Positions 11,077-46,397 of a stretch of 64,000 nucleotides of DNA are shown here, in pieces. This stretch comes from Patescibacteria group bacterium (GTDB lineage Bacteria; Patescibacteriota; Patescibacteriia; UBA2591; JAQWAS01), in assembly GCA_028707495.1 (NCBI GenBank), contig JAQWAS010000006.1, positions 664 to 64,663 on the forward strand, written 5' to 3'. The stretch's first letter is position 1. Every line of letters starts with the position of its first letter. The notes below the pieces were generated by a model. That model saw only the letters and a program-made list of their open reading frames with translations. It was not told the DNA's origin and made no database searches. The translations under genes were made by a program, and so were the position numbers.

Positions 11077-11283
11077 TTATTTTAATTTATTCAAATCTTT
11101 TAGTAAATTATCTAAATCCAAATCATACATTTTACAAATATCACCTAATTTTAAAACTTGCATTTCCATTTGAGCCATAGGGCAAGAAATACACGGTACT
11201 TTATATTTAGCTAAAATTCCAACAGATTCTGGCTTAGTTAAAACTTGAGCTAAAGTTGTATTTTTATTTATTTTTTGAGTCAT
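11077..11283 (-). CDS. DUF1858-like small protein (68 aa)
   Basis: Sequence pattern LAQVL...P....L.......C..C.....L (with VPCISCP) resembles the DUF1858 domain, which is often linked to Fe-S and redox genes. Confidence 0.5.
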   Translation of the reverse strand: MTQKINKNTTLAQVLTKPESVGILAKYKVPCISCPMAQMEMQVLKLGDICKMYDLDLDNLLKDLNKLK

Positions 11284-11644: not shown

Positions 11645-11678
11645 AAATTAAATCTTAAATGTAAAATTAAATTTTATT

Positions 11679-11840
11679 TGTCATCCCGAATTTCCGTCTG
11701 AACATCTATGGCTTTGTGTCATGCTGAATTTATTTCAGCATCTGTAATTAAGTTAAACGTTTCTTGCTCTGACAGGGTAAAAAGCATCAACAGATTCTGA
11801 AACAAGTTCAGAATGACAACTACAAAACAGAATGACAATC
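11679..11840. repeat. Copy A of the dispersed hairpin-repeat family (tgtcatcccgaa; gtcatgctgaa-N5-ttcagcatc; ttctgaa-N5-ttcagaatgacaa)
   Basis: Shares the TGTCAT..CTGAA / TTCAG..ATGACA modules with the loci at 13542, 20300, 21497 and 53609. Confidence 0.7.
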
Positions 11841-11929
11841 TCTAGCGTTAATAGACTTTTAAATATCCTCCGGTTCGGCTGGTTAGTTGCCACCCTAAAT
11901 CCCACGGACATTCTGCTAAATTTTTTTAA

Positions 11930-13075
11930 CTAGTAAATCGGCGATATCTTTCTTAATTTTTGAATAATGTTTGGTAAAATTTTAATTAAATAATCAATCT
12001 CTTTTAAAGTATTAAAACGACTTAAACTAATTCTTAAGCTACTATTAGCTAGTTCATCAGATAAGCCAATAGCTTTTAAAATATAACTTGGTTCTAAGGT
12101 TAAGGCCGAGCAAGCCGACCCAGTTGAAGTGGCAATCCCTTTATCATCTAATAATTTACCCAAAGATTCGCCTTCAACACCCTTGAAAGAAAAATTGATA
12201 TTATTACACAAACGTTTTTTACCGGTTGGGCCGTTTAAATATGTATCAGGAATTTTTTGAATTTCTTTGATTAATTTATCACGCAATTGAGTCATTTTTA
12301 AAATATCTTTTTGTTTGGCTAATTCAACAGCTTTACTAAAACCAATGATTGCTGGAATGTTTTCAGTGCCGGCTCTTAATTTATGTTCATGATTACCGCC
12401 ATGTTGCCAAGGTTCAATTTGTGTACCATTTTTAACATACAAAGCGCCAATGCCTTTAGGCCCGTGGATTTTATGAGCATTTAAACTAACCAAATCTAGA
12501 TTAAATTTTTTAACATCAATTTCGGTTTTAGTATAGCTTTGACAAGCATCAGTATGAAAATAGATTTTGTGTTGAGCACAAATTTTACCAACAGCTTCTA
12601 AATCTTGAAGAGTGCCAATTTCGTTATTGGCATGAATAATTGAAATCAAAATAGTTTTGGGAGTGATGGTTTTTTTGAGTTCATTTAAATCAATAAAACC
12701 GTGTTTATCAACTGGCAAATAAGTAATTTTAAAGCCTTGAGTAGTTAACCATTTACAAGAGTTTAAAACAGCTTTATGTTCAATTTGAGTGGTAATAAGA
12801 TGATTACCCTTTTTTTTATTAGCCCAAGCGATCCCTTTCAAGGCTAAATTATCACTTTCAGTTCCGCCAGAAGTAAAAATTATTTCGTTAGGTTTGGCCT
12901 TGATTGATTGAGCAATAATTAAACGACTTTTTTCTAAATCCTTTTTAGATTTTAAACCACAAGTGTGCAATGAGGAGGCATTGCCATAAAAATTCATTAA
13001 ATATGGTTGCATAGCTTTAACAACTTGCAGATCAGTTTGGGTTGTGGCCGCGTTATCAAAATAAATATGTTTCAT
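11930..13075 (-). CDS. nifS: Cysteine desulfurase (class V aminotransferase, NifS/IscS)
   Basis: PLP-binding lysine region (SLNAHKIHGPKGIGALY) and active-site Cys (STGSACS), 381 aa. Confidence 0.9.
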   Translation of the reverse strand: MKHIYFDNAATTQTDLQVVKAMQPYLMNFYGNASSLHTCGLKSKKDLEKSRLIIAQSIKAKPNEIIFTSGGTESDNLALKGIAWANKKKGNHLITTQIEHKAVLNSCKWLTTQGFKITYLPVDKHGFIDLNELKKTITPKTILISIIHANNEIGTLQDLEAVGKICAQHKIYFHTDACQSYTKTEIDVKKFNLDLVSLNAHKIHGPKGIGALYVKNGTQIEPWQHGGNHEHKLRAGTENIPAIIGFSKAVELAKQKDILKMTQLRDKLIKEIQKIPDTYLNGPTGKKRLCNNINFSFKGVEGESLGKLLDDKGIATSTGSACSALTLEPSYILKAIGLSDELANSSLRISLSRFNTLKEIDYLIKILPNIIQKLRKISPIY

Positions 13076-13175: not shown

Positions 13176-13505
13176 TTACAATGTATTTAGGATATCGTTT
13201 TTTAAGGCATCTTTTTGTCTTAAACCAACAAATTCTTTAATAGAGATGCCATTTTTGAATAATTTCATCGCTGGAATGCTTTGAATTTGATATTCTTCAA
13301 CTAATTGTTGGTTAGCTTCGGCACTAATATCAACTTTTACAATTTTAACTTTATCAACTAAATCTTGAGCGAGTTCATCTAAAATTGGTCCCATCATTTG
13401 GCAAGGGCCACACCATGGTGCCCAAAAATCAACCAAAACAGGTAAGTCTGATTTTAAAACTTCAGACTCAAAATTATCCTGAGAAATATTTAATGCTTGT
13501 GACAT
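13176..13505 (-). CDS. trxA: Thioredoxin
   Basis: WAPWCGPC active site, 109 aa. Confidence 0.9.
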   Translation of the reverse strand: MSQALNISQDNFESEVLKSDLPVLVDFWAPWCGPCQMMGPILDELAQDLVDKVKIVKVDISAEANQQLVEEYQIQSIPAMKLFKNGISIKEFVGLRQKDALKNDILNTL

Positions 13506-13704: not shown

Positions 13705-14850
13705 TTAATTTATACCAATTAAATAATAAAAACCTAAACCTAAAAGTAGTATTGCCTCAATCAAAGTAATCCACACAACAAATTTTTGCGAACCCAATCT
13801 AATTTTCATAGTAAAAACCGCGATAACAAAAATTACAATTTCATCCAACATATAGAAAAAGACAAATAAGGTAATACACAAAACATAGCTTAGGGCAGTT
13901 AAATTAGCTTGAGAGAGCAGGCCGGCATAAAAAAGTGGTAAGGCGGCTGAGCAAGGGAACTCAATTAAGGTAATAACACCAGCAAAAACAATAATCGCGC
14001 CAACGAGACTTAAGGTGCGACTGGGTTGGGTGAAGGCAGATTTTAATTTAGTTGAAATTTTAGTCATAGCCTGACTCATACCACAATTGGGGCCATATTT
14101 TAACATACGAATAAATTGATAAATTAAATAAATTCCGCCGATTAAGCCAAGACAACCAATTACAACTTCCATGGAGCGCAAATAATTACCTAAAATATTA
14201 AAAAGTTTATACCAAAAGCCAATCAATAAACCATATAAAATAGCCGTTGTTAAAATAAAAGTTAAACCTAGACCAAATATTTTTTTACGTGATTTTAGGG
14301 TCAAAACTAGACCTAAAATAAAAACCAAAGCACCCAGAGAGCACACATTAAAACCATCAAAAAAGCCGAACATAACTGCTAAAATTGGTAAGGAATATTT
14401 TTCAATATCTATGTGGCCAATAATTGGTAGATGAATATCATTTTCGTCATCATCTTGACATTCAGTATTAGATTCTTGTTGTTGATCAGTTAGATAATCA
14501 ATTTTATTTTGTAGGTTAATTTGAGTTGTTTGGCCAAAACCTAAAAGGTATTCATCTTGGATAAAAGTTATTGGTACCAAGCCATGGATATTTTGAGGCA
14601 CATTATATTGCTGATAAAAACTTTTTAGCAGATCAACATTTTCTGATTGAGCCAATGAATAATAATTAATTTTTAAATCACAACCCTCTTTTTCTGTTTT
14701 CTGTAAAAAGCTTTTTTCTTGGGCACAATGGGGGCAAGACTCACTATAAAAAAAATTAATTTCATTATTAATTTCTTGTGCCAAAGTTAATTTAGGCAGC
14801 CAAGTTAAGCTGACTAAGATTAAAACTAAACTTAAAAATAATTTTTTCAT
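13705..14850 (-). CDS. Thiol-disulfide oxidoreductase fused to a CcdA/DsbD-type transmembrane domain
   Basis: Signal peptide, an N-terminal thioredoxin-fold with a CPHC motif, then a polytopic membrane domain with the conserved Cys pair of CcdA/DsbD-like proteins. Confidence 0.65.
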   Translation of the reverse strand: MKKLFLSLVLILVSLTWLPKLTLAQEINNEINFFYSESCPHCAQEKSFLQKTEKEGCDLKINYYSLAQSENVDLLKSFYQQYNVPQNIHGLVPITFIQDEYLLGFGQTTQINLQNKIDYLTDQQQESNTECQDDDENDIHLPIIGHIDIEKYSLPILAVMFGFFDGFNVCSLGALVFILGLVLTLKSRKKIFGLGLTFILTTAILYGLLIGFWYKLFNILGNYLRSMEVVIGCLGLIGGIYLIYQFIRMLKYGPNCGMSQAMTKISTKLKSAFTQPSRTLSLVGAIIVFAGVITLIEFPCSAALPLFYAGLLSQANLTALSYVLCITLFVFFYMLDEIVIFVIAVFTMKIRLGSQKFVVWITLIEAILLLGLGFYYLIGIN

Positions 14851-16818: not shown

Positions 16819-17469
16819 TTATTTGATAATATTTAAAAATTCTTTAATTAATTTATTAGTTTTTTCATTTAAATAATAAAAATCTTTCCATAAAACAACG
16901 ATATCAGCATTATTTAACACAGAACTTTTAATTTCTTGAATTGTATCGCCACCAGCTACAGAAATAAAAATTTTATTATAACTACCTTTAATTTGTTTAA
17001 TTTGATAATAGGGAATTAATTTTTCATTATTTTTTGTTTCGTCAACTCCTCTATGCAAGATAACTGCATCGGGCAAAGTTTTTAGTTTTTTTAAAATTAA
17101 AAGAGGATTTTCAACATTCATCATATCAATCATTGAATCAATATGATAATGGTCACATAATTCAATAAATTGTTTGATAGTTTCAATTGGTGCTACGCCT
17201 AAACAAGTAATAGCATTGGCACCGGCTTGAGCAAATAATTCTACTTCTCTATAAGCAAGATCGGCACACTTAGTATCAGCAACAAAATAAGAAGATGGGG
17301 CCACTTTTTTTAAGGTTGCTACGGCAAGTGCGCCATAAATTTTAATTAAAGGTGTTCCAATTTCAATTAAAATTCTTGGTGAAATAGGCAATTTAGAAAT
17401 AATAGCTTGTGCATTATTTAAATTACTATTGAGAGCAATTTGAATATATTTTTGGTGTCTTTGTAACAT
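16819..17469 (-). CDS. 3-hexulose-6-phosphate synthase-like (OMPDC-family ribulose-phosphate-binding barrel), paralogue 1
   Basis: LQIALN...IEIGTPLIKIYG...VADTKCADLA aligns with B. subtilis HxlA (LQLALD...VEIGTPVIKIWG...LADMKTMDAA). Confidence 0.65.
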   Translation of the reverse strand: MLQRHQKYIQIALNSNLNNAQAIISKLPISPRILIEIGTPLIKIYGALAVATLKKVAPSSYFVADTKCADLAYREVELFAQAGANAITCLGVAPIETIKQFIELCDHYHIDSMIDMMNVENPLLILKKLKTLPDAVILHRGVDETKNNEKLIPYYQIKQIKGSYNKIFISVAGGDTIQEIKSSVLNNADIVVLWKDFYYLNEKTNKLIKEFLNIIK

Positions 17470-17488: not shown

Positions 17489-18157
17489 TTAATATTTTAA
17501 TGTTTTAAGAAATTCTTTAGCTAGTTGGCTTGTTTGTTTAGAATTATTATTGAATAATCGCCAAACAACAGCAATATTAGCATCATTAAAAATAGCACGT
17601 TTAACTTCTTTAATATTTTCGCCTCCAGCAATGGAAATTAAAACACGATAGGTTGCTTTAATTAAGTGAATTTGATGATAAGGAATTTGTTTTTCTCTAT
17701 TATTAGATTCATCAACTCCTCGATGAAGAATAACAACATCAGGAATTAATTTTAATTTTTTTAAAATTTCAAAAGGAAATTCAACATTCATCATATCAAT
17801 CATTGAATCAATATTATGTTTAACACAATTAGAAATAAATTCGTTTATTGTTTCAATTGGAGCTAATCCTAAACAAGTGGCCGCCTGAGCGCCAGCGCGG
17901 GAAATTGACGCGATTTCTCGTGAACCACGATCCATACATTTTAAATCAGCTACAATATATCCTGGTTTGCCAAGTTTTTTTTGCCAATAATTTTTAAGAT
18001 AAACAATGCCCTGTTCGCCATAAGTTTTTATTAAAGGCGTACCCGCTTCAATTAAAATTCTATCTGAAGTTGGTAAAGAATCAATCATTTGTTTAATTTC
18101 ATCTAAAGATTGATTAAAGGCAATTTGCAAATAAGTTTTTCTATGATTAAGAGTCAT
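17489..18157 (-). CDS. 3-hexulose-6-phosphate synthase-like, paralogue 2 (tandem duplicate)
   Basis: About 45% identical to the upstream paralogue; the same motifs (IEAGTPLIKTYG, ADLKCMDRG, IDSMIDMMNVE). Confidence 0.65.
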   Translation of the reverse strand: MTLNHRKTYLQIAFNQSLDEIKQMIDSLPTSDRILIEAGTPLIKTYGEQGIVYLKNYWQKKLGKPGYIVADLKCMDRGSREIASISRAGAQAATCLGLAPIETINEFISNCVKHNIDSMIDMMNVEFPFEILKKLKLIPDVVILHRGVDESNNREKQIPYHQIHLIKATYRVLISIAGGENIKEVKRAIFNDANIAVVWRLFNNNSKQTSQLAKEFLKTLKY

Positions 18158-26413: not shown

Positions 26414-27346
26414 ATGATGGATTTGTTTAAAGAAATTTTAGAAAAATATAATTTAGAATTTAAAAAAGATCATCCAGAAATTGAAATTAATGGTAGCCCT
26501 GAACGTTGCCAGCAACGTTGGGTAATTGAAGATCAAGTGGGTGATTTTTTTATTGTTGAAAAAATTTTTAATCATCAAGTTAACCGTCGAGAATATATCA
26601 GTCAAAATTTAGAAAAATTAAATCAAGCTGGTTTAGATAAAATTGAATTATATTTAACAAATAATCAGAATGAGTTTATAACTCAAATTAACAAAGACTG
26701 GTGGCAGATTAAAAAATATATTTTGGGCGTAGATTTGCAACGTCCAGATTATTTAGATGACAGCTGGCGTGGTCAAGTTTTGGCTGACTGGTATTTAGAA
26801 TTTAGTCAAAATAGTTCAAAATTAAACACAATTCCTCAAGCGGTTTTTTCTATTAAAACTTATATTTATGAATTAATTGAAGGGCTTAAAAAATATCAGC
26901 CTAAAGTTTTGAATCAGATTGAACCTGTTTTGAATTTTTTGAACCAAAAGTTTATGTTACAACATGATAAATTAACCAAGAGTTTTTGTCATGGTGATTG
27001 GCATGTGTTAAATATAATTTGGGGAGAACAAGAAATTAAAAAAGTTATTGATTGGGAATTTTGCGGTTGGAAACCGCAAGTCTATGATTTAGCTAATATG
27101 TTAGGTTGTTTAGGAGTTGAACATCCAACGGCTTTTCAAAGAAAATGCGTTTTAAGTTTAATTCAAAAAATAAAAGGGTCTAATTTATTTAATAAATTAA
27201 GCTGGCAAATTTTACCAGAATTTATTTTAGCCTTGCGTTTTGCCTGGTTGGCTGAATGGTTGAGAAAAAATGACCAGCCGATGATTAAATTAGAAATAGA
27301 TTATATGTTTTGGTTAAAAGCTAATGTTGATAAATTAATTGATTAA
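26414..27346 (+). CDS. Phosphotransferase-family kinase (APH/choline-kinase-like)
   Basis: Catalytic HGDWHVLNI and DWEF motifs. Confidence 0.55.
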   Translation: MMDLFKEILEKYNLEFKKDHPEIEINGSPERCQQRWVIEDQVGDFFIVEKIFNHQVNRREYISQNLEKLNQAGLDKIELYLTNNQNEFITQINKDWWQIKKYILGVDLQRPDYLDDSWRGQVLADWYLEFSQNSSKLNTIPQAVFSIKTYIYELIEGLKKYQPKVLNQIEPVLNFLNQKFMLQHDKLTKSFCHGDWHVLNIIWGEQEIKKVIDWEFCGWKPQVYDLANMLGCLGVEHPTAFQRKCVLSLIQKIKGSNLFNKLSWQILPEFILALRFAWLAEWLRKNDQPMIKLEIDYMFWLKANVDKLID

Positions 27347-27384
27347 GAGTTTACTCTTTTTTGTTTTTTATCTATAATATATAT

Positions 27385-28254
27385 ATGAATAAAAAAATTA
27401 CCAAAGCGGTTATACCCGTGGCCGGTTTCGGTACGCGATTTTTTCCAGCTACCAAAGCTCAGCCCAAACAAATGTTGCCAATTTTAGATAAACCAGTTAT
27501 TCAATATATTGTTGAGGAAATGGTAGAGTCTGGAATTAAACAAATTATTTTAGTAACCGGTGCTGATAAAAGAGCCATTGAAGATCATTTTGATTATAAT
27601 GATGCTTTGGCTCTTCATCTAGAAAAACAGGGCAAAAAAGATGTTTTAGAGCAAATGGAAAAAATTTCAAACATGGCTGACTTTATTTATGTGCGCCAAA
27701 AGGGTCCCTACGGTAATGGCACACCATTATTAAACGTTCAAGAAATAATCGGCGATGAACCTTTTATCTGTGCTTTTGGCGATGATGTTTTTATGGGAGA
27801 AAAACCAGCTGTTCAGCAAATAATCGAAGTATATAATCAATATGGTGGAAGTGTTATTGGATCTTTTAGAGTTGATCAAAATAAAGTTAATCAATATGGG
27901 GTTTTGGATGTTGAAAAAAAAGAAGATAAAATTTATCAAATAAAAGATATTGTTGAAAAACCATTAGTTAAGGATGCTCCCTCTAATTTAGTTGTAACTG
28001 GTCGGTATTTATTTACTCCAGATATTTTTAAAGCATTAAAAGAGATTCAACTTGATGGGGGAAAAGAATTGTGCGTTTCAGATGCAATTGATATTTTATT
28101 GGGCCAAAATAAGCCCTTTTATGCTCGAGAAATTGATGGAACATATTATGATTGTGGCAATAAGTTTGAATTTTTAAAGGCCATCGTGGATGTTGGTTTG
28201 CAACGGCCAGAATTTAAAAAAGATTTAATTGATTATCTAAAAGCTAAAATATAA
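27385..28254 (+). CDS. galU: UTP--glucose-1-phosphate uridylyltransferase
   Basis: KAVIPVAGFGTRFFPATKAQPKQMLPILDKPVIQYIVEE is a canonical GalU N-terminus. Start set at MNKK (27385) rather than the ORF-track 27361. Confidence 0.85.
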   Translation: MNKKITKAVIPVAGFGTRFFPATKAQPKQMLPILDKPVIQYIVEEMVESGIKQIILVTGADKRAIEDHFDYNDALALHLEKQGKKDVLEQMEKISNMADFIYVRQKGPYGNGTPLLNVQEIIGDEPFICAFGDDVFMGEKPAVQQIIEVYNQYGGSVIGSFRVDQNKVNQYGVLDVEKKEDKIYQIKDIVEKPLVKDAPSNLVVTGRYLFTPDIFKALKEIQLDGGKELCVSDAIDILLGQNKPFYAREIDGTYYDCGNKFEFLKAIVDVGLQRPEFKKDLIDYLKAKI

Positions 28255-28263: not shown

Positions 28264-29634
28264 ATGATTAAAAAACATTGGAGTAAAATTTTAGTTATTT
28301 TATTATTAATCGTTATTATGACGGGTGGATTTAGATGCAAGACAACTTCGCAAGAAGTCAGAGAGGCGATGAAGCCGGTTAAATTAATTTATTGGGGAGT
28401 TTGGGACACGCCCGAAGCCATCAATTTTTTAATTAATGATTATCGAGTTTTACATCCGCATGTTTCAATCGAATATAGAAAATTAAGAAACGAAGAATAT
28501 GAACAAGCCTTAAAAGAAGCTTGGTTAGATGAACGTGGTCCGGATATTTTTGCCATTCCAATTACCTGGTTAGAAGAATATAAACATCGATTATTGCCCT
28601 TACCAGATAAAATTACGATGCCATACGTTCAATTGGTTGGACCGTCGTGTAAACGTGAAGAAGAAGTTGTTTTAAAAACTCAAGCTAGTTTAAATTTAGG
28701 TGATATTCGCCAAAAATTTGTTGGCACAATTTATGATGATGTGGTTGAGGGCGAGCAGATTTATGGATTACCATTAAGCTTAGATAGCTTAGTTTTATAT
28801 TATAATCGTGATTTGTTGAATACAGCTGGTATCCCTCAACCACCAACTAATTGGACAGAATTTAAAAATCAAGTTCAAAAATTAACTTTTCAAGATGAAA
28901 AGGGCAATATTGTTCAGGCTGGGGTGGCCTTGGGTACGGCTAATAACGTCAGAAACGCGACAGATATTTTATCCCTATTAATGATGCAAAATGGAACACC
29001 GATGATTCAAGGCAGAAAGGCGACTTTTAATTTACCCTCAACTCAACGAGAAGGCTATTATCCTGGAGAAGAAGCTTTACGTTTTTATACAGATTTTGCC
29101 AATCCAGCTAAGGAAGTTTATACTTGGAATAGTCAAATGCCAGATTCTTTAGACGCTTTTATTGAAGGTCGCGTAGCTTTCTATTTTGGTTATTCGTATG
29201 ATTTGGCGACTATTCAATCTCGAGCACCTAAGTTGAATTTTAGTATCACTACCATGCCTCAAATTAAAGATAGCTTGCAAAGCGTGAACAGCGCTAATTA
29301 TTGGATTCAAACGGTTTATTGGAAAACGGAACATGCCAATGAGGCTTGGGATTTTATTCAATTTATGGCGACGAATGAAGATTCGATTAAAAAGTATTTA
29401 GATGTTGATCATCGTCCAACGGCTTTGAATAGTTTATATAATCAACAAATTGAGGACTATGATTTGCGACCATTTGTAAAACAAATTTTAACTGCCCAAA
29501 CTTGGTATAACGGTCAAAATTATCCAGTAGTTGAAGAGGCTTTTAAAGAAATGATTAATAAAGTTTTACGTGGTGAGGCGACGATTAAACAAGCAATTCT
29601 ATATGGAGTAGGGGCAGTAAATTTAACATTTTAG
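28264..29634 (+). CDS. Extracellular solute-binding protein (ABC transporter, family 1 sugar-binding type); no permease genes adjacent
   Basis: Signal peptide and a 456 aa periplasmic-binding-protein-like sequence. Confidence 0.65.
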   Translation: MIKKHWSKILVILLLIVIMTGGFRCKTTSQEVREAMKPVKLIYWGVWDTPEAINFLINDYRVLHPHVSIEYRKLRNEEYEQALKEAWLDERGPDIFAIPITWLEEYKHRLLPLPDKITMPYVQLVGPSCKREEEVVLKTQASLNLGDIRQKFVGTIYDDVVEGEQIYGLPLSLDSLVLYYNRDLLNTAGIPQPPTNWTEFKNQVQKLTFQDEKGNIVQAGVALGTANNVRNATDILSLLMMQNGTPMIQGRKATFNLPSTQREGYYPGEEALRFYTDFANPAKEVYTWNSQMPDSLDAFIEGRVAFYFGYSYDLATIQSRAPKLNFSITTMPQIKDSLQSVNSANYWIQTVYWKTEHANEAWDFIQFMATNEDSIKKYLDVDHRPTALNSLYNQQIEDYDLRPFVKQILTAQTWYNGQNYPVVEEAFKEMINKVLRGEATIKQAILYGVGAVNLTF

Positions 29635-29664: not shown

Positions 29665-30402
29665 ATGATATCTAAAAATTATAAAATCATAATTTCAATT
29701 CTATTGTTGTCGTTATTTTTTTTACCACAAGTTTCTCAAGCTAAATTATTGCCAACACCAACCGGCAGTTGTCCAAATAATTTAAGTTGTGTTGACGGCA
29801 AATGCAGTGGTACTACCTTAGAATGTAATTACACTCTAGATGATATTTTAAGAGGCTTTGTAGATTTTAGTGAGTGGTTATTAAAAATTTTAGGAACCAT
29901 TGCTCTGCTAATGTTTGTAGTTGGTGGGGCAATGTATTTAACGTCTGGTGGCAATGAAGAAAAAGTCAAACAAGGTACGGCTATTTTAAAGGGAACAATT
30001 ACGGGTATTATAATTGCTTTATTGGCTTGGACAATTGTGCATTTTGTTTTAGTAATTTTAAATGTAGACCCCAAATATCAAGCCGGTCTAACTGGAGCTG
30101 GGGTAAGTGATGCTTGCGGAACCACACCGGCAACATCTGGTTACGATTGTATGGAATTGACTTCATGTAACCTACCTAGTGATTTAGATTATTGTCGGAT
30201 TGATAATCAATGCTATCGAGGAATGTGTATGAGTAATTCGAGTCAGACGGTTGTGTGTTGTAAGCCGTTATCAACTTGTGGGAGCGGTAGTCGTCAATAT
30301 TGTTTTTGCCGAGAAAATTGTTTGGGCACGGATGAACATTTGTCGAGCAATGATAGTGATTGTAATTCTGGTCAGTGTTGTTGTTTAAATTATCTTCCAT
30401 AA
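29665..30402 (+). CDS. VirB2/TrbC-like pilin-family protein with Cys-rich N- and C-terminal extensions
   Basis: Core FVDFSEWLLKILGTIALLMFVVGGAMYLTSGGNEEKVKQG with a second TM helix, shared with the three downstream paralogues; about 20 Cys in the extensions. Confidence 0.6.
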   Translation: MISKNYKIIISILLLSLFFLPQVSQAKLLPTPTGSCPNNLSCVDGKCSGTTLECNYTLDDILRGFVDFSEWLLKILGTIALLMFVVGGAMYLTSGGNEEKVKQGTAILKGTITGIIIALLAWTIVHFVLVILNVDPKYQAGLTGAGVSDACGTTPATSGYDCMELTSCNLPSDLDYCRIDNQCYRGMCMSNSSQTVVCCKPLSTCGSGSRQYCFCRENCLGTDEHLSSNDSDCNSGQCCCLNYLP

Positions 30403-30415
30403 TAAATAAAAATAT

Positions 30416-30790
30416 ATGACATATAAAAAAATTATCATTGGTATTATATTAAGTCTGTCATTTTTTAATTTTTTAATTATACCAATTTTAGCACAAACGA
30501 ATGCTTCGCCAAGTACAGTATCAATATCTAATCCAATTCCAGAAAATGATCCTAAAATTTTAGTTGGTAAAATCATTAAGGCCTTTTTGGGATTTTTGGG
30601 CACAATTGCTTTGGTAATGGTTATTTACGGTGGCTTTATGTGGATGACGTCAGCCGGTAATGAAACTAAAATTGAAAAGGGTAAAAATACTTTATTGTGG
30701 GCAGTCATTGGTTTGGCGACAATATTTTTAAGTTATACTATTCTAACAATGGTTTTTAATGCTCTAGAAGGAAAACCGATTTTTGGTTAA
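30416..30790 (+). CDS. VirB2/TrbC-like pilin-family protein
   Basis: Signal peptide, GGFMWMTSAGNETKIEKGK motif, C-terminal TM helix. Confidence 0.65.
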   Translation: MTYKKIIIGIILSLSFFNFLIIPILAQTNASPSTVSISNPIPENDPKILVGKIIKAFLGFLGTIALVMVIYGGFMWMTSAGNETKIEKGKNTLLWAVIGLATIFLSYTILTMVFNALEGKPIFG

Positions 30791-31003
30791 AGATCGGCTT
30801 GTTGTGGATAGTTTTTTTGTGGTATAATAATTTAATAGTGATAATAATTAATAATATCTTTTAAAAATTTGTCTAGATTAAGGTTATAAATTAGAATCCG
30901 TTTGGGGAGGTTTAATGTTAATCAACATTGCCCACCTGAGGCGGACTAATAATTTGTAACTAAATCAAAGATTTAGACAAATTATTAGAAAGGGGGTGAA
31001 AAT

Positions 31004-31381
31004 ATGAAAATTACAAAAAAACATTTATTAGCTGGTGTCTTTTCTGTTTTTGCGATAAGTATGTTAGTTGTGCCAGCAGTTTTGGCACAGAATATGCCAA
31101 ATTTGCCTAATAGTCAATATGCAATTAGTAATTTAGAGAATCAACAAGATATTATGAATAGAATAGAAGGTATAATTAATTCTATTTTAGCCTTCTTGGG
31201 ATTTATAGCCGTTATTATTATGTTAATTGGTGGTTTTTTGTGGATGACAGCTGCTGGTAATGAAGAAAAAGTAGAAAAAGCCAAAAAAACTATTGGTGCG
31301 GGCGTAATTGGTTTAGCTATTATTTTATTATCTTGGATTATAGTCAGAATCGTTTGGTTAATTTTGATAAATCAATGGTAA
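31004..31381 (+). CDS. VirB2/TrbC-like pilin-family protein
   Basis: Signal peptide, GGFLWMTAAGNEEKVEKAK motif, C-terminal TM helix. Confidence 0.65.
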   Translation: MKITKKHLLAGVFSVFAISMLVVPAVLAQNMPNLPNSQYAISNLENQQDIMNRIEGIINSILAFLGFIAVIIMLIGGFLWMTAAGNEEKVEKAKKTIGAGVIGLAIILLSWIIVRIVWLILINQW

Positions 31382-31392
31382 AAGAATATTAA

Positions 31393-31803
31393 ATGAAAAT
31401 CGAATTTAAAAAAATATTAATTATAATATTTATTCTATTGATTTTACCAATCACAGTTTTGGCTGATAATTATGGACTTGATGTAACAGCGAACGTGGCT
31501 GGTTTAAAAAATGCAGATATAGATGTTATGGCCAGAACAGAAGAGATCATAAATGCTATTTTGGGTTTTTTAGGCTTTATAATGGTATGTTTAATAATAT
31601 ATAGTGGTTTTATGTGGATGACTTCGACTGGTAATGAAGAAAAAATTACTAAAGCTAAAAATACATTGAAAGCGTCTATTATCGGTTTTGCTATTATTAT
31701 GCTAGCCTGGGTAATAATTACGGTTGTTTGGGGTGTCTTAGTCGGCGAACCAATTTTTAGTGGAGGTACGGGTGTGACCGGTGGAATAAATGTACCTCAC
31801 TAA
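31393..31803 (+). CDS. VirB2/TrbC-like pilin-family protein
   Basis: Signal peptide, SGFMWMTSTGNEEKITKAK motif, C-terminal TM helix, Gly-rich tail. Confidence 0.65.
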   Translation: MKIEFKKILIIIFILLILPITVLADNYGLDVTANVAGLKNADIDVMARTEEIINAILGFLGFIMVCLIIYSGFMWMTSTGNEEKITKAKNTLKASIIGFAIIMLAWVIITVVWGVLVGEPIFSGGTGVTGGINVPH

Positions 31804-31865: not shown

Positions 31866-32588
31866 TTATTGGATTTGGATTTTTAATCTTATAGTTTCTT
31901 TTAAATATTGTAAAATGGTTTTTAGTAAATTGACTCGACTATGACGAATCTTTTTATCAGCGTTATCAGACCATTCAACAGAGATTTCTTGTATTTTATA
32001 ATTAAGTTTTATAGACCGGATTAATAGTTCCGAGTCAAAGAACCATGAATCGTTTTTTACGTTTGGTAAAATATTTTTGATAATTTCATAATCGAAAGCT
32101 TTAAAGCCACAGGGATAATCGTTAATTTTAAGACCAAAAACCCAATTTATTATTATAGTATTTATTTTCGACAACAAAGTTCTTAACTGTGACCTATCTA
32201 TTTTTGACGCAGTTAAATATCTAGAGCCAATAGTTATATTAGCCTTTTGTAAGATTATAGGTTCTATCAAATTTTTTAAATAAGACAAATCGGTTGCCAG
32301 GTCTGCGTCCATAAAACAATTGATACTGGCTGGATATTTATTCCAGGCAGTTCTGATAGCTAGTCCCTTGCCTTTATTGTTTGTATATGTGTATTTTATG
32401 TTTAAGTATTTTTTTTCTAAAATTTGAGAAATTTGACCGGTTTTGTCTGACGAATTATTGTCAGCAATTATTATTTGATAGTCATGAGAATATAAATTTT
32501 TCTGACAGAAATCTAATATTTTCAAAATATTCTGTTCTAAAATTTTTTCTTCATTATAAACAGGGACGACAATGGAAATTTTTTTCAT
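31866..32588 (-). CDS. Family 2 glycosyltransferase (polyprenyl-phosphate sugar synthase, DPM1/ArnC-like)
   Basis: KISIVVPVYNEE... DNNSSDKT ... FMDADL GT-A fold motifs, 240 aa. Confidence 0.85.
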   Translation of the reverse strand: MKKISIVVPVYNEEKILEQNILKILDFCQKNLYSHDYQIIIADNNSSDKTGQISQILEKKYLNIKYTYTNNKGKGLAIRTAWNKYPASINCFMDADLATDLSYLKNLIEPIILQKANITIGSRYLTASKIDRSQLRTLLSKINTIIINWVFGLKINDYPCGFKAFDYEIIKNILPNVKNDSWFFDSELLIRSIKLNYKIQEISVEWSDNADKKIRHSRVNLLKTILQYLKETIRLKIQIQ

Positions 32589-32600
32589 TTATTTTTTAAT

Positions 32601-34112
32601 TTAATTTTTTTTTGGGGTAAAAAGGTAATAATTGTGACAAGATGGACAGTCGCCGCCTATTTTTTCTTTCAATAAATAGTTATTTTTAATTAATTTAATA
32701 GTTGAATAATTGAATCTTCCCAAGATTCCATTTATTATTTTACTGTCGTCAAATATATTAGTTTCTAAGATAATAAGATTTAATTTTTGATCAACAATTT
32801 GATTATTGAAGTCATCTAATTTTTTAATATTTGATCTGTCGAGCTGAGAAAGCATAAAAATATCTATAGGGGTGCCTTTATTTGTTAATAAAGATAGTGT
32901 TGCGTTTTCACTGAAAATAGGTGCATTAACTTGATCTATTCTTTTTAAAGTTTCCAAATTAATATGTTTTAAATAATTTAAAAAAACATGACTATTTTTA
33001 TAAAGATTTACAGGAATGCAAATAAGATCAAAAATTAAAATAGTTGATATAATGACTACGAAAATATTTTTATAATTGCTATATGTTACAAATTTAATTG
33101 TATCGTCAATAAATAAAGATGCACAGATTGAGAGAAAAATTATTATTTCAATAAAATAATTAGTATTAGATCCAAGTCTAACTAACGTTATAAATGTTAA
33201 AAAAAGGGATATAATGGCATAGATAATTAACAAGTAGAAAGATTTTTTATTTTTAAATAAGTTAATAAACAAAAAAGTTCCTCCAAATAGATAAATTAAC
33301 AGGTCAATTAAGGCAGATTCGTGTATTCTAAATAAAACCATAGATAAATCCATAACAGAACCAGACGTTAAATATTTAAAAATGTGCAATGTAAATTGGT
33401 TTTGGGTAAGTAGATTTAAAACAACAATACCCGATAAAAGGGAAATAAAAAATATCGAGGTGAACTTAATTAGTTTTTTATATTCCTTGTTAATAAATAA
33501 ATATATTATAAAAGCGACCGGAGCGGATATAAATGAGTGTTTAGTAAAAAAAGCTAAAACAAAAAATATTATTGATAGATATAACCAGTTTGATTTTTGA
33601 TATCTCAATATGAGATAAAAACCTATTAAACTAAAAAGGACTGCCAGCGGATCAACCCTAACGAGTGATAACCAGACTAGAATAGTTTGCGATGAGTAAA
33701 TTAAAAGAGCGGCAACAAGGGATGTGGTTTTTTTATTCGATAAAATGAATGTAATTTTATAAGCCAAGAAAACTATTAAAATTGAAATAATAAAGGAAAA
33801 GGTTCTGCCAGCTAAAAAATTTACTCCGAAAATTTTGACGAGTAAAGATAAAATAAAGATATGAATCGGTGGATAGTTAGTAGGTACGAAGAGAGGATCA
33901 TCTAATTTGCCGTATATGGTTGTATCGAGATCAAAATTGGTAGCTTGATATAATTCTAAGCCTTCAGCATAGTCTAGCTGGTATGGATATAAAATTTGTT
34001 TTATAGATATAAAAACAAAAAAGCCAAAATTTATCAGTAAAATAAAAATAATTACATATTTTATTTTTTCTGCAATGGGTTGGTCTAAAAATTTTTTAAT
34101 AATTCTCTGCAT
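32601..34112 (-). CDS. Polytopic GT-C-type membrane glycosyltransferase (PMT/ArnT-like)
   Basis: 503 aa with more than 10 TM helices, overlapping a second such gene and adjacent to the polyprenyl-phosphate GT2. Confidence 0.55.
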   Translation of the reverse strand: MQRIIKKFLDQPIAEKIKYVIIFILLINFGFFVFISIKQILYPYQLDYAEGLELYQATNFDLDTTIYGKLDDPLFVPTNYPPIHIFILSLLVKIFGVNFLAGRTFSFIISILIVFLAYKITFILSNKKTTSLVAALLIYSSQTILVWLSLVRVDPLAVLFSLIGFYLILRYQKSNWLYLSIIFFVLAFFTKHSFISAPVAFIIYLFINKEYKKLIKFTSIFFISLLSGIVVLNLLTQNQFTLHIFKYLTSGSVMDLSMVLFRIHESALIDLLIYLFGGTFLFINLFKNKKSFYLLIIYAIISLFLTFITLVRLGSNTNYFIEIIIFLSICASLFIDDTIKFVTYSNYKNIFVVIISTILIFDLICIPVNLYKNSHVFLNYLKHINLETLKRIDQVNAPIFSENATLSLLTNKGTPIDIFMLSQLDRSNIKKLDDFNNQIVDQKLNLIILETNIFDDSKIINGILGRFNYSTIKLIKNNYLLKEKIGGDCPSCHNYYLFTPKKN

Positions 34113-35757
34113 TTTTTATTTTGTAGATTTTAACTTCTAAGTCTTCATAGGCAAGTATAAATTTAGCATTATTATTTAAAACCTTATCGAGCTCTATGTG
34201 ACGATTTTTTTCTAAAAAGATATAAGAAGAATTAAAATTGTTTTTTATAATTTCAGACAGATTGTAATCATTGATATCTAATTTTTTATTATTTTTAAAA
34301 TTTTTTTTATAGTCAGTATTAATAGGTGGATTGCCCCACACAAGATTTTCCCATTGCCAATATAGATTTTTATCATAGTTATACATAAATGTTGGGTCTA
34401 AACCAACTAAATAATTATTTTGATCGTTGTGATAAAAGAGGGCGGGAAATTCGTCCCAGCAACTGTGGAAGATGGTTGATTTTAAAGGGGTGTTGTCTTT
34501 AAGCCATTGGCTACTGTATTTAAATTTATTTAAGTCAAAACCATTGGTAATATTTTTTTGAGTATCGATAATAACTCTAACTAAGCCAAAATAAACAAAA
34601 AACCCCATGCCGATAATCAAATAAATAGTTATTATAGATAAAATAAAACGTTGTGGTCCTAAAAAGCTATGCTTAATTTTTTGTATGATCGATTTATAAT
34701 TGACGGTTGGCCAAAAATTATTTAAAGAGTAGCCAATGGCGAGAATAGTAAGGGGTACAAAATATTCTACATAGCGACCAGATTTTAGTGTTGCCAAACA
34801 AAAAATAATCGATAAAAATAACAAACTAAAAACTTTTTTAGATTTATTTCTTTGATTAGAGGACCAGATGAAAGAAAAAATCCATAGAATCATTATAATA
34901 ATTAGTACATAAAGTAATGATAAGCCATTATATGGATACCACTCCATACCGACTGAAATTTTATTGCCATAATTTAAAATACCTATTTTAAAAATTTGTT
35001 GCCAATAAAAATTTATATTTTGTGGAAAATATGGATTAATTATTATTCCCAAAATCGATCCGGATAAGGTTGATAGGATTAATTTAATTTTTTGTTTTGC
35101 AAATAAGTTTTTAAAAGTTTCTGATAAAAATTTATTATAATCTTTGTAATTTGCTGATAACGAGATTATAAGACAATATATAATAGTTATAAAAGGTAAA
35201 AGTATCCAGCCGCCATAACTCCAAACATAAATAAAAGATAAACATAAAAGACTCCATGGCCTATTTTTAAATAGACAATAAATACCTATAAACAAAATTA
35301 TCATTGATAGGGGTTGGGCTTTTGCTAAGCTCATGCGATATAACCAGGGAGAGGCAGTTAATAAAAGGCCAAGATATAACCAAGTTGGTTTTATTTTTAG
35401 TTTTTTTAGTAACCAATAAAAAGTCAAAACAGTTAAAGTTGATAAGATGATTACGGAAAATTTTATACCGATTAGTGGGTCAGGGAAGAGAGTAATAAAG
35501 GGGATTAAAATAATATGATAAAGTAAATGATGATCTACATATTTTTCACCCGTCACAACCGTATACTGTAACCATGGGAAATTTTTTATAATTCCCTGGT
35601 CTTTCATTAAAAGAGCCATTTTGGTGTGATAAAATGAATCGGGGTCGGTTAAAGTCGGTGAAATTTGAAAATAAGAAAAAATAGTTACACTAAAAAGTAT
35701 GACTAGTAGGATTGGCAATAACTTATTTTTATAAAAAATATTTTTAATTGAAAGCAT
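34096..35757 (-). CDS. Polytopic GT-C-type membrane glycosyltransferase (PMT/ArnT-like), second copy
   Basis: 553 aa with more than 10 TM helices; 17-nt overlap with the downstream gene suggests an operon. Confidence 0.55.
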   Translation of the reverse strand: MLSIKNIFYKNKLLPILLVILFSVTIFSYFQISPTLTDPDSFYHTKMALLMKDQGIIKNFPWLQYTVVTGEKYVDHHLLYHIILIPFITLFPDPLIGIKFSVIILSTLTVLTFYWLLKKLKIKPTWLYLGLLLTASPWLYRMSLAKAQPLSMIILFIGIYCLFKNRPWSLLCLSFIYVWSYGGWILLPFITIIYCLIISLSANYKDYNKFLSETFKNLFAKQKIKLILSTLSGSILGIIINPYFPQNINFYWQQIFKIGILNYGNKISVGMEWYPYNGLSLLYVLIIIMILWIFSFIWSSNQRNKSKKVFSLLFLSIIFCLATLKSGRYVEYFVPLTILAIGYSLNNFWPTVNYKSIIQKIKHSFLGPQRFILSIITIYLIIGMGFFVYFGLVRVIIDTQKNITNGFDLNKFKYSSQWLKDNTPLKSTIFHSCWDEFPALFYHNDQNNYLVGLDPTFMYNYDKNLYWQWENLVWGNPPINTDYKKNFKNNKKLDINDYNLSEIIKNNFNSSYIFLEKNRHIELDKVLNNNAKFILAYEDLEVKIYKIKNAENY

Positions 35758-42313: not shown

Positions 42314-43684
42314 ATGACAAAAGAACAATTGTGGCAGGGGGTTTTAGGCGAACTCGAATTAAATTTAAGTAAAGCCAATTTTACAACCTGGTTTAAAAAT
42401 ACTTTTATTTTTTCTTGGGATGAAACTAAAGGAGAGATCGTGATCGCCGTGCCTAACGCGTTTACGCAGGCTTGGCTAGAAAAAAAATATCACAAAGATA
42501 TTAAAAAGGGTTTAACAAATGTTTCTAATCAAGACATTAAAAATGTAATTTATAAAATAGAGAATATTCGTCATTATAAAGAAATGAAAGAATTAGAAGG
42601 CCAGAAAATAGCGGAACCAACATTAATTGAGGATTCGGCTAGTAAAACTAGGTTGAATGCTTATGGTTTAAATCCTTATTATACTTTTGATAATTTTGTA
42701 GTTGGTAAAAATAATGAACTGGCTTATGCGGCTTGTAAGGCAGTAGCCGAAAAATCAGGCGAAAAATATAATCCATTATTTATTTATAGTGGCGTGGGTT
42801 TAGGTAAAACTCATTTATTACAAGCCATCGGTCATGCGATTTTAGAAAAAAACCCTAAAGCCAAAGTCCTTTATGTCAGTTGCGAAAAATTTACCAATGA
42901 TTATATTCGAGCCATTCACGACAAAACCATTGATAGCTTTAAAAAATATTATCGTACCGTGGATTTGCTGTTAGTCGATGATGTGCAGTTTATGGCCGGC
43001 AAAGAAGGCACTCAAGAAGAATTTTTTCACACCTTTAATGAATTACATCAAAAAAACAGACAAATTGTGATCACTTCAGATCGTTTACCTAAAACCATTC
43101 CGGCACTAGAAGAACGGTTAATTTCACGTTTTGAATGGGGATTAATTACTGATATTTCCAAACCAGATCTAGAAACTCGATTAGCAATTTTAAATTCAAA
43201 ATGTGAGGAGAAAAAATATAAACTCAGTGATGATATTTTAAAATTTTTAGCCTCAACTATTCAAACCAACGTTAGAGAATTGGAAGGGGCTTTAAATAAA
43301 GTCATTGCTTATCATAATCTTTACAATTTAGAACCAACCCTAGATTCAACTAAAAATATTTTGTCGAGTTTAAAAGCCAAGCCACAACGTGGTGCTTTAA
43401 CTCCTCGCCAGGTGATTAAAACCGTTTCTGATTTTTATGAAATTAAACCGAATGATTTATGTTCTAAAACACGTAAAAAGGAAGTGGCCATGCCAAGACA
43501 AATTGCAATGTATTTATTACGTGAAGAAGTGGGAACTTCTTATCCCAGTATTGGTCAAGAATTGGGCGGACGTGATCATACGACTGCCATTCATGCTTAT
43601 AATAAAATTAAGGAAGCTGTCGAAGAAGACGGTCGAGTTAAAGATGATATCGAAATGATAAAACAGAGACTTTATAATACTTAG
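42314..43684 (+). CDS. dnaA: Chromosomal replication initiator DnaA
   Basis: AAA+ Walker A (GVGLGKTHLL), Walker B (LLVDDVQF) and C-terminal DnaA-box-binding HTH, 456 aa. Confidence 0.9.
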   Translation: MTKEQLWQGVLGELELNLSKANFTTWFKNTFIFSWDETKGEIVIAVPNAFTQAWLEKKYHKDIKKGLTNVSNQDIKNVIYKIENIRHYKEMKELEGQKIAEPTLIEDSASKTRLNAYGLNPYYTFDNFVVGKNNELAYAACKAVAEKSGEKYNPLFIYSGVGLGKTHLLQAIGHAILEKNPKAKVLYVSCEKFTNDYIRAIHDKTIDSFKKYYRTVDLLLVDDVQFMAGKEGTQEEFFHTFNELHQKNRQIVITSDRLPKTIPALEERLISRFEWGLITDISKPDLETRLAILNSKCEEKKYKLSDDILKFLASTIQTNVRELEGALNKVIAYHNLYNLEPTLDSTKNILSSLKAKPQRGALTPRQVIKTVSDFYEIKPNDLCSKTRKKEVAMPRQIAMYLLREEVGTSYPSIGQELGGRDHTTAIHAYNKIKEAVEEDGRVKDDIEMIKQRLYNT

Positions 43685-44720: not shown

Positions 44721-46397
44721 ATGCCAACCCAAAATTTTTTTAAGGACGAAAGCCGAAAGAAAAATCAACAATTACACGAAAAACTAGGAGATATTAAAAT
44801 AAAAGAAAAAGAACGTGTAGTTCAAACGCAAGCAGTTATTTTAGGTATAAATTATATTAATTTAGTTGGTTTTGCTATTTCCGATGAAGCTTTAAGAATT
44901 CTCCCAAAAGATAAAGCCGAAACATTAAAAACTATTTGTTTTTTATTAGAAAATAAAGAATTGCGTTTGGCTACGGTTGATTCGACTAATGTGGCTGTTC
45001 AAGATTTGGCCCAAGAATTAAGTCGACAAGGTTATCATGTTGAAATTTATTTAACTTCGCAACATTCTTTCGACAAGGCTTTACAGTTATATGAGCGTTT
45101 GCCTAAAATTAAAGAAGTCACCGTGGGGGTAAAAATTAGCCAAAATGATTTTGAGTTATATAAGAATAAAATTAAAAAATTAAGTGATGTACAGGCTGAA
45201 ATTCAGGATGCTGACATTTCTAAAATTGTAACCGTAATTATTGCTGCCGCGGTCCAAGCTGAGGCCTCAGATATTCACGTTGAAGCTGAAGAAAAAGATA
45301 TTAAATTGCGTTATCGTATTGATGGTGTTTTACAAGATGTTGCAATTTTAGATAAAGAATTGTGGAAAAATTTAAATTCTAGAATTAAATTATTAGCCAA
45401 ACTGAAAATTAATATTATCGACCAACCTCAAGACGGTCGGTTTAGTATTTTTTTGCACGATCAGAAAATTGACGTCAGAGTTTCATGTTTGCCAACTAAT
45501 TTTGGTGAAAGCGTGGTGATGCGTTTATTGACGGGGACAGCCACTAGTGTAGAATTTGAAAGCTTAGGATTAATTGGTCAAGCCTTTGAACAATTATCAC
45601 AGGAAATTAAAAGACCCAACGGGATGATTTTAACCACTGGGCCAACTGGTTCGGGTAAAACAACAACCCTATACGCTATTTTGAAAAAAATTAAAAATTC
45701 ACAAACTAAAATTATTACTTTAGAAAATCCAATCGAATATCAGCTAGATGGTATTAGTCAAAGTAATGTAGATATAGATAAGGGTTACGGATTTGCTGAT
45801 GGTTTAAAATCAATTTTACGTCAAGATCCAGATGTGATTATGGTCGGAGAAATCAGAGATTATGACACGGTTGATACGGCTATTAACGCAGCCCTAACCG
45901 GCCATTTGGTTTTATCGACTTTGCACACTAATAGTGCTGCAGCAACTATTCCGCGTTTTTTATCGATGGGAGCTAAGCCATTTTTGTTGGCCCCATCTTT
46001 AAATGTTATCATTGCGCAACGTTTAGTTAGGCGAGTATGTGAAAAATGTAAACAAGAAATCCAACTATCAGAAGCTGATTTAGAAAAAATTAAAAAAATT
46101 TTACAATCCATACCAGAAGCTATGCGCCAGGGAATTGATTTAGAAAATTTAAAGTTTTATCATGGTCAAGGTTGTGAAAGTTGCCAAGGAATCGGTTATA
46201 AGGGTCGAATTGGTATTTATGAAGTTTTGACTATGAATGAAGAAATCGAAAAAATGGTTTTGAACGAAAAAGTATCAGAATATGATATTTTAAACATTGC
46301 ACAACAAAACGGTATGGTGACGATGGTGCAAGACGGCTTATTAAAAGCTTTACAGGGTGTTACTTCAGTAGAAGAAGTTTTCCGAGTAGCTGAATAA
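44721..46397 (+). CDS. GspE/PilB-family secretion/pilus assembly ATPase
   Basis: Walker A GPTGSGKTTTLYA, Asp box, Walker B and His box; C-terminal tetracysteine (CEKC...CESC), 558 aa. Confidence 0.85.
   Translation: MPTQNFFKDESRKKNQQLHEKLGDIKIKEKERVVQTQAVILGINYINLVGFAISDEALRILPKDKAETLKTICFLLENKELRLATVDSTNVAVQDLAQELSRQGYHVEIYLTSQHSFDKALQLYERLPKIKEVTVGVKISQNDFELYKNKIKKLSDVQAEIQDADISKIVTVIIAAAVQAEASDIHVEAEEKDIKLRYRIDGVLQDVAILDKELWKNLNSRIKLLAKLKINIIDQPQDGRFSIFLHDQKIDVRVSCLPTNFGESVVMRLLTGTATSVEFESLGLIGQAFEQLSQEIKRPNGMILTTGPTGSGKTTTLYAILKKIKNSQTKIITLENPIEYQLDGISQSNVDIDKGYGFADGLKSILRQDPDVIMVGEIRDYDTVDTAINAALTGHLVLSTLHTNSAAATIPRFLSMGAKPFLLAPSLNVIIAQRLVRRVCEKCKQEIQLSEADLEKIKKILQSIPEAMRQGIDLENLKFYHGQGCESCQGIGYKGRIGIYEVLTMNEEIEKMVLNEKVSEYDILNIAQQNGMVTMVQDGLLKALQGVTSVEEVFRVAE

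Follow-up and report, generated by a model that had tools for sequence, protein, structure and literature searches.

The Patescibacteria (Candidate Phyla Radiation, CPR), which rely on contact with host cells, represent a sizeable part of bacterial diversity. According to the accessible text of a recent survey, in which 3,035 Patescibacteria genomes were searched with the Pfam families PF04956 and PF18895, VirB2-like pilins accompany VirB4 in 1,948 assemblies, of which 1,135 have a pilin gene near virB4; the authors recorded 441 arrays, each of 2–11 pilin genes, with a mean identity of 25% and a maximum of 54%, and genes of type IV secretion systems (T4SSs) tend to sit near dnaA in these bacteria (Quinonero-Coronel et al., 2025; PMC12102498). 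The available part of another report describes the series of pilins in the SEML1 T4SS cluster of Ca. Southlakia epibionticum as essential (Wang et al., 2023; PMC10633639), and a 2025 review treats this array as a possible Gram-positive conjugative pilus. In the current study, we describe a locus of this kind on a stretch of 64,000 nucleotides from a Patescibacteria group bacterium (assembly GCA_028707495.1, contig JAQWAS010000006.1, positions 664–64,663), hereafter the window, in which four tandem genes, pil1 to pil4, occupy positions 29665–31803. The array itself is of an already described kind and is not new. The newer part is a Cys-rich pilin subfamily, represented by pil1, that is linked to a solute-binding protein (SBP) gene, together with adhesin-like fusions of the same pilin hairpin in relatives.

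The listing of open reading frames (ORFs) reproduces exactly the four successive + strand genes of the initial, sequence-only reading: pil1 (29665–30402, 245 aa), pil2 (30416–30790, 124 aa), pil3 (31004–31381, 125 aa), and pil4 (31393–31803, 136 aa). The last three are short array-type pilins, without Cys in pil2 and pil3 and with a single Cys and a Gly-rich C-terminal tail in pil4. Pairwise identity among the four is 28–49%, and a hidden Markov model (HMM) built from them found no additional paralogue within the 64 kb. Their membership in PF18895 (T4SS_pilin), as judged by profile scores, is solid: pil1 to pil4 reach 44.6, 33.6, 40.2, and 41.8 bits, respectively, all above the gathering score of 26.6. 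A Pfam scan of the four with TrbC/VirB2 (PF04956) matched pil2 only, at 22.6 bits (E = 1.2e-4) and below the gathering score of 27.9; some database relatives match both families. The NCBI profile NF045849 (Mbov_0395 family pilin-like conjugal transfer protein; cutoff 40) is matched above cutoff by pil4 (47.5 bits) and below it by pil3 (39.2 bits), pil2 (38.1 bits), and pil1 (18.0 bits), with pil2 and pil3 short by less than 2 bits. The quartet is an array by the definition published for Patescibacteria, namely at least two PF18895/PF04956 genes of low mutual identity, either in tandem or with one non-pilin gene between them. In the NCBI deposit, pil1 and pil4 are named “pilin” and pil3 “hypothetical protein.”

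More distant relationships were sought with profiles. Because a single-sequence search of a 5.8-billion-protein database with pil1 returned only three matches, a profile search was used, which yielded 1,124 relatives at E ≤ 1; among the matches listed, all carry PF18895. When an 88-sequence family profile was compared with all PDB sequences, Agrobacterium tumefaciens VirB2 (8cue) ranked first at a non-significant E-value of 0.98, with an alignment in register and the common motif D..I...LG..G...V..I..G..WM. Homology of pil1–4 to VirB2/TrbC is thus sub-threshold and, by these comparisons, probable. On the whole, the HMM results bear out the VirB2/TrbC-like assignment proposed at the outset, with all four proteins above the PF18895 cutoff, a sub-threshold TrbC match for pil2, and VirB2 as the best PDB sequence match. 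The conserved core quoted for all four proteins, however, holds for pil2–4 (LGFLG...GGFMWMTSAGNEtK and similar) and not for pil1, which reads LKILG...GGAMYLTSGGNEEK.

That pil1 stands apart became evident from its genomic context. Directly upstream lies an SBP_bac_1 gene (28264–29634, +; PF01547 88.8 bits, PF13416 79.8 bits) with an N-terminal hydrophobic anchor or signal; it stops 30 bp 5′ of pil1, and no ABC permease or ATPase adjoins it. Comparison was made with 80 related loci (±10 kb, 1.26 Mb; designated here by L numbers, and individual proteins by P numbers), which were collected by scanning one genome per GTDB species with a profile from an alignment of pil2–4, a six-sequence alignment having been too divergent for this locus scan. 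Of the 80 loci, 42 have a homologue of the window SBP (up to 50% identity) at most 500 bp upstream of a pilin gene, with gaps of about 10–30 bp and a median of 11.5 bp (e.g., L012:2920–5047, L024:2024–4234, and L073:~1000–3188), and in 15 loci the SBP–pilin pair is separate from the main array, a few kb off. Among 460 pilin ORFs, 15 of the best 20 BLAST matches of pil1 directly follow an SBP gene (p = 6e-14); the hairpin core of pil1 alone gives 13 of 20 (p = 8e-11), and none of the top 20 matches of pil2, pil3, or pil4 is SBP-adjacent. Sequence comparison thus identifies pil1 as a member of a separate, conserved, SBP-linked orthogroup within PF18895, and not, as first described, merely as a longer first paralogue. 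The first pilin in the 38 SBP-adjacent cases has at least 8 Cys in 19 and at least 180 aa in 20. Neither the accessible text of PMC12102498 nor that of PMC10633639 mentions an SBP–pilin pairing, and full-text searches of the literature for such combinations, as far as the indexed texts extend, returned nothing.

The second distinguishing feature of pil1 is its extensions. It comprises a signal peptide (aa 1–26, ...VSQA↓K), an N-terminal extension (aa 27–57), the hairpin (aa 58–132), and a C-terminal ectodomain of 113 aa (aa 133–245; 30061–30399, +). The early description of a protein twice as long as its neighbors, with about 20 Cys in its extensions, proved precise: there are exactly 20, of which four (residues 36, 42, 47, and 54) precede the hairpin and 16 follow it within residues 151–240. 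The C-terminal extension has no Pfam match at E ≤ 1. An exhaustive search of 1.84 billion representatives returned one credible homologue, P0123, which is 42% identical over the full length, keeps the Cys pattern, and shares the motif C..LPS.LDYC...NQCYRG.C...VCCKP..TCG; similarity to the C-terminal extensions of SBP-adjacent pilins in L073, L020, L011, L066, and L015 is weak. Two further candidates were discarded: P0122, a 4,003-aa repeat protein whose match covers only residues 10–47 and looks compositional, and P0124, a leucine-rich-repeat-like protein. The pil1 orthologue P0123 is itself encoded in L082, downstream of a partial SBP gene that is 63% identical to the SBP of the window. On that contig (JGI 3300017593, Ga0187538_160940), the C-terminal part of the SBP (2–517, +) lies upstream of the pilin gene, and its N-terminal part, together with an NTP_transferase, is inverted 3 kb downstream (3938–4921, −), which reflects either an inversion or an assembly artefact.

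All four products are small exported proteins in which a short polar loop separates two hydrophobic helices, as judged by Kyte–Doolittle hydropathy and, for pil1 and pil4, by AlphaFold2, in agreement with the signal peptide and two-helix hairpin initially read from each gene. All four carry Sec-type signals, in which a basic N-terminus and a hydrophobic core lead up to a small-x-small site (VSQA↓K, VLAQ, VLAD), and the two long helices are linked by a polar GNE(E/T)K loop. In the models, the helices span residues 58–93 and 98–132 of pil1, with a predicted local distance difference test (pLDDT) score of ~90, and residues 41–77 and 82–116 of pil4, with a hairpin pLDDT of ~90 and a model mean of 78. 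Because the signal is cleavable and the inter-helix loop is the segment richest in lysine, pil1–4 are predicted to have both termini outside and the loop inside. VirB2/TraA pilins have the same arrangement of outward N-terminus, inward loop, and outward C-terminus. It follows from this predicted topology that both pil1 extensions, and with them the cysteines, would, as the sequence-only reading had assumed, be extracytoplasmic rather than cytoplasmic.

The parity of the cysteines points the same way as the disulfide bonding that this reading had put forward. In extensions with at least three Cys, taken from PF18895 proteins among the database matches and the 80 related loci, even counts outnumber odd ones by 60 to 13 in C-terminal extensions (p = 2e-8) and by 38 to 9 in N-terminal extensions (p = 2.5e-5); pil1 has 16 and 4. 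Given this strong bias and a topology that places the extensions outside the cell, the pil1 cysteines are likely to be disulfide-bonded, with two disulfides in the N-terminal and eight in the C-terminal extension. CPR genomes are reported to be enriched in MdbA-like oxidoreductases (PMC6744442). The window also encodes a 381-aa protein (13705–14850, −) with a signal peptide, a thioredoxin-like CPHC domain, and a C-terminal polytopic membrane domain; CPHC is a DsbA-type active-site motif, the DSBA match is weak (E = 0.11), and a thioredoxin gene (13176–13505, −) adjoins. We regard this protein as a candidate thiol-disulfide oxidoreductase of the extracytoplasmic space, which could act on the Cys-rich pilin.

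The related loci show how far this pilin family has diversified. Almost all belong to Patescibacteria and bear Veblen-, Falkow-, Magasanik-, Kerfeld-, Uhr-, or Jacksonbacteria names, which we take to be lineages of class ABY1; L002, L004, L012, L014, L025, and others are titled “uncultured Gammaproteobacteria bacterium,” an apparent labelling error. Between 2 and 15 PF18895 ORFs are present in 72 of the 80 loci (mode 7), which, along with the published arrays, upholds the view that the family is expanded in CPR bacteria. In at least nine loci, a signal peptide and an N-terminal PF18895 hairpin belong to a giant protein of 600–3,476 aa with up to 158 Cys (L032:12839–20134, L049:9854–19357, L026:9830–14224, and L013:9815–11887, with further cases in L027, L031, L035, L059, L071, and L080). 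Four of these giant proteins, of up to 3,167 aa, were scanned, and in them Ig-like domains (Big_5, Big_7, TIG, fn3, or He_PIG) come after the hairpin; by this domain content, such proteins look like adhesins. The C-terminal ectodomains carried on one type of hairpin thus form a continuum from 0 to ~3,300 aa, and, because relatives fuse the same hairpin to Ig-like domains, a role of the C-terminal extensions in adhesin display is credible on sequence grounds. Proteins with two T4SS_pilin hairpins in tandem were also observed (P0015, P0018, and P0023; L003:8644–9372, L011:6270–7352, L012:5050–6066, L015:5929–7002, and L054:3053–4480); their genes often take second place in the array and directly follow that of the Cys-rich member, and some of the proteins have a Cys-rich tail.

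The explanation that we favor, and consider probable, is that the array provides pilus subunits, pil2–4 together with the Cys-rich pil1, for a T4SS encoded at a distance in the genome. Each product would be exported by the Sec route, lose its signal peptide, and sit in the membrane as a two-helix hairpin with its K-rich GNEEK loop toward the cytoplasm and both termini outward, steps that follow closely from the sequence features described above. Of the four, pil2–4 are ordinary short, sequence-divergent array pilins, and in the pil1 subfamily the hairpin is predicted to display extracellular, disulfide-bonded domains rich in Cys. By analogy with VirB2/TraA and the essential pilin array of Ca. 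Southlakia, a monoderm-type T4SS, with its genes located elsewhere, would extract the short pilins from the membrane and polymerise them into a surface filament or a channel. As a minor subunit, pil1 may then project a Cys-rich knob from the outer face to contact the host-cell surface, and the divergence of the paralogues (28–49% identity) might widen surface specificity. The subunits of solved conjugative pili all have both termini on the outer surface of the filament, so that the pil1 extension would decorate the filament side wherever pil1 was incorporated; by this analogy, side decoration is just as possible as the tip position suggested earlier.

Several observations weigh against a pilus of this kind. 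VirB4- or VirB6-like partners, which the sequence-only reading proposed to look for, did not appear nearby: no VirB4, VirB6, VirB3/PrgI, VirD4, or relaxase family was found in a Pfam scan of ~60 of the 70 window ORFs of at least 90 aa (the unscanned ones are all shorter than 250 aa), and none of the 23 Walker A-containing ORFs of at least 450 aa from the 80 related loci encodes a VirB4-type ATPase. These 23 encode ComM, SMC, FtsH, IF-2, EngA, GyrA, DnaA, an amidase, and AAA_14, and the VirB4 candidates considered in recurrent flanking clusters and among the Walker A ORFs turned out to be housekeeping genes, including PPDK and HisRS; a bulk Pfam scan of 89 cluster representatives covered the top 25 families, through which a lone VirB4 could escape. 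Because no VirB4-type partner was found nearby, the connection to a T4SS rests on homology and literature. Fold comparison is of little help here. For the pil1 model, the best Foldseek match was the Aeropyrum pernix conjugation pilus (8dfu) at a non-significant E-value of 0.51 (probability 0.92, target TM-score 0.63), and the pil4 model compared with the PDB gave generic helical hairpins and nothing significant, because the two-helix hairpin is too simple and generic a fold. The C-terminal extension of pil1 was predicted by AlphaFold2 with a pLDDT below 50 and no modelled fold, and an appendage of 113 aa, or of 3,000 aa in relatives, is hard to place on every subunit of a helical pilus. To our knowledge, filaments of PF18895 proteins have yet to be seen in a Patescibacterium. 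The CPR filaments solved to date in one bacterium, the Ig-like Pam pili, are unrelated (bioRxiv 10.64898/2026.03.03.709456).

Part of this evidence suits a different explanation, which we regard as possible although rather unlikely. The hairpin could be a membrane anchor or oligomerisation scaffold for surface display that works independently of a T4SS, with pil1 and the orphan SBP forming a receptor or capture complex that binds, for example, host glycans or scavenged sugars, the short paralogues acting as accessory membrane partners, and glycosyltransferases of the GT2 and GT-C types glycosylating the exposed parts. The close and recurrent spacing of SBP and pilin genes, and their placement apart from the array in 15 loci, are consistent with such a complex, as is the lack of a T4SS ATPase near any of the 80 arrays among the Walker A ORFs inspected. 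Ectodomains that range from 0 to ~3,300 aa become too large for a regular helical lattice, and the glycosyltransferases remain neighbors even where gene order has changed. However, the probable sequence homology of the pilins is to VirB2-type pilins, and in other classes of Patescibacteria, as far as the accessible literature describes them, such genes lie inside T4SS clusters and are essential; moreover, the conserved gene order, from which a putative interaction between SBP and pilin is read, may partly stem from shared ancestry. A broader proposal of the same kind, which we put forward tentatively and consider doubtful, is that the PF18895 hairpin may serve this branch of the Patescibacteria as a modular scaffold for surface display, genetically uncoupled from T4SS clusters, with interchangeable C-terminal ectodomains on the pil1 subfamily and on other PF18895 proteins of the related loci, and with the pil1 subfamily working alongside the orphan SBP and the neighboring GT2 and GT-C enzymes.

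Two other explanations are effectively excluded. It is very improbable that pil1–4 are unrelated small proteins that resemble pilin hairpins, such as holin-like proteins, bacteriocin or immunity proteins, or Cys-rich toxins: tandem two-helix membrane proteins and Cys-rich secreted domains are known from bacteriocin loci, and fold searches do not discriminate between helical hairpins, but the PF18895 and NF045849 matches exceed curated cutoffs, no peptidase-ABC exporter, lysis, or phage genes lie nearby, and a chromosomal housekeeping context is conserved in many genomes. Weakest of all, and scarcely tenable, is the notion that pil1–4 are type IV pilus pilins or pseudopilins assembled by the PilB/GspE-type ATPase at 44721–46397 (T2SSE 402 bits plus an MshEN domain), since, although type IV pili are abundant and important in CPR bacteria, pil1–4 have Sec signals that end in A-x-A-like sites, contain two hydrophobic helices instead of a single one, match no type IV pilin family in Pfam or NCBIfam, and lie 13 kb from this ATPase, which is surrounded by unrelated genes. 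The type IV pili driven by PilB are made of pilins with a class III signal peptide (short basic leader, G↓F/M-x-x-x-E) and one N-terminal hydrophobic helix. Inspection of the pil1–4 sequences revealed no class III signal peptide, and for this reason the ATPase, which the initial reading mentioned along with the array, is not considered its partner. The ATPase gene itself is adjoined by genes for an ATP-cone/Mrr-like protein and an unannotated 175-aa ORF, with no PilC, PilM, or pilin genes beside it.

To return to the four-gene array, its layout suggests how it may be expressed. Spacing is tight within the pairs pil1–pil2 (13 bp) and pil3–pil4 (11 bp), and a gap of 213 bp (30791–31003, +) divides the quartet between them. 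A terminator scan detected a terminator-like hairpin at the end of pil2 (30776–30797), a pattern search found an extended −10 element (TGGTATAAT, 30820–30828) inside the gap, and a strong Shine–Dalgarno sequence (GGGGGTGA), the best ribosome-binding site among the four genes, lies directly 5′ of pil3. Given these three signals around the gap, two transcription units split at this point (SBP–pil1–pil2 and pil3–pil4) are plausible. An Rfam scan of the window returned only tRNAs, and thus no known RNA element in the gap. The array lies 10.5 kb from dnaA (42314–43684), and in L018 dnaA (2727–4082) and a pilin array (8799–12143) are 4.7 kb apart; this proximity echoes the published tendency of T4SS genes toward the origin. 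Cumulative GC skew climbs monotonically over the window, with no turning point at dnaA.

The surroundings of the array are ordinary chromosome. Upstream genes encode Polysacc_synt, Wzy_C, a pseudouridine synthase, a PD-(D/E)XK nuclease, an APH-type kinase, an NTP_transferase, and the SBP_bac_1 protein, and further downstream follow GPI, YebC, RuvC, SMC, RNase III, NusB, dnaA, and the PilB-type ATPase. The NTP_transferase gene (27361–28254, +; PF00483 109.9 bits), whose product is sugar-1-phosphate nucleotidyltransferase-like, is situated upstream of the SBP gene, and a homologue within 3 kb of a pilin gene precedes the SBP gene in 25 of the 80 loci. Convergent with the array is a glycosylation block (31866–35757, −) that consists of a GT2 gene (31866–32588), a PMT_2 gene of the GT-C type (32601–34112), and a gene for a 553-aa polytopic protein (34096–35757). 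Among the 80 loci, 30 have a GT2 homologue no more than 3 kb from a pilin gene and 21 have a GT-C-like membrane protein at a distance of up to 500 bp, and this block may be functionally linked to the pilins. The pilin genes are thereby flanked by an APH/choline-kinase-like kinase and the NTP_transferase on one side (26414–28254, +) and by the GT2/PMT_2/polytopic set on the other; judged by domain content, the flanking set looks like one for sugar activation and extracytoplasmic glycosylation, with pilin glycosylation or sugar salvage as possible functions. Elsewhere in the window, we noted a 624-aa protein (8158–10032) with no Pfam match at E = 0.5 and a HEIGH motif, the signature of zincin metalloproteases, two adjoining OMPdecase-family paralogues (16819–17469 and 17489–18157, −), and, near the window end, a Fic/DOC protein with a C-terminal HTH_17 domain (62411–63361, −).

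A basic array of this type is expected for the phylum. VirB2-like arrays are essential in the single species tested, and no adhesin has yet been assigned to a CPR T4SS. The present comparison indicates that the arrays are heterogeneous, with an SBP-linked subfamily whose ectodomains are disulfide-rich and, in relatives, Ig-like, and which is found away from T4SS ATPase genes; SBP-linked ectodomain pilins are therefore concrete candidates for host-recognition modules. If the hairpin is a modular display scaffold of the kind proposed above, the ectodomains on the pil1 subfamily and on other PF18895 proteins, which range from disulfide knobs of 100 aa to Ig-like adhesins of 3,000 aa, might constitute the “missing” adhesins with which CPR bacteria attach to hosts or, alternatively, part of an unrecognised SBP-dependent apparatus for host contact and nutrient capture.

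Compared with known systems, the locus combines familiar and unfamiliar traits. Like the Pam pili of Ca. Mycosynbacter amalyticus, it would contribute CPR-specific surface filaments of the sort implicated in host contact, but Pam pili are built from Ig-like subunits by donor-strand exchange with chaperone-usher-like factors and belong to an unrelated fold and family (bioRxiv 10.64898/2026.03.03.709456). The VirB2 paralogues of Bartonella, Anaplasma, and Rickettsia, as cited in the accessible text of PMC12102498, likewise combine tandem amplification with divergence and are read as a means of surface variation or a broader host range; these are diderm pathogens of eukaryotes, however, with complete VirB operons and pilins without Cys-rich ectodomains. 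The Mbov_0395 family of Mycoplasma integrative and conjugative elements resembles the window pilins in its 80-residue hairpin profile, which is matched nearly full length, and in its wall-less or monoderm host, whereas its genes are borne on these elements with conjugation genes, and those of the window are chromosomal and multi-copy, with no conjugation neighbors. Agrobacterium VirB2 and RP4 TrbC (PF04956; 8cue) share the signal peptide, two hydrophobic helices, a short cytoplasmic or lumenal loop, and outward termini; by contrast, the window pilins score below the PF04956 cutoff, show no sign of being cyclised or of being encoded in a VirB-type operon, and come from a monoderm host, and VirB2/TrbC have no counterpart to the 31-aa and 113-aa Cys-rich extensions of pil1. 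The accessible descriptions of Patescibacteria VirB2 arrays likewise include no mention of Cys-rich or fused pilins (PMC12102498; PMC10633639), and literature searches on Cys-rich or SBP-linked CPR pilins, as far as the indexed texts extend, returned nothing. With these arrays, as far as the same texts describe them, the present locus shares PF18895 membership with cross-matches to PF04956, tandem divergent paralogues, a chromosomal location, and Sec-type signals, and it differs from them in having no T4SS gene among the scanned window ORFs, a preceding SBP_bac_1 gene, and Cys-rich ectodomains.

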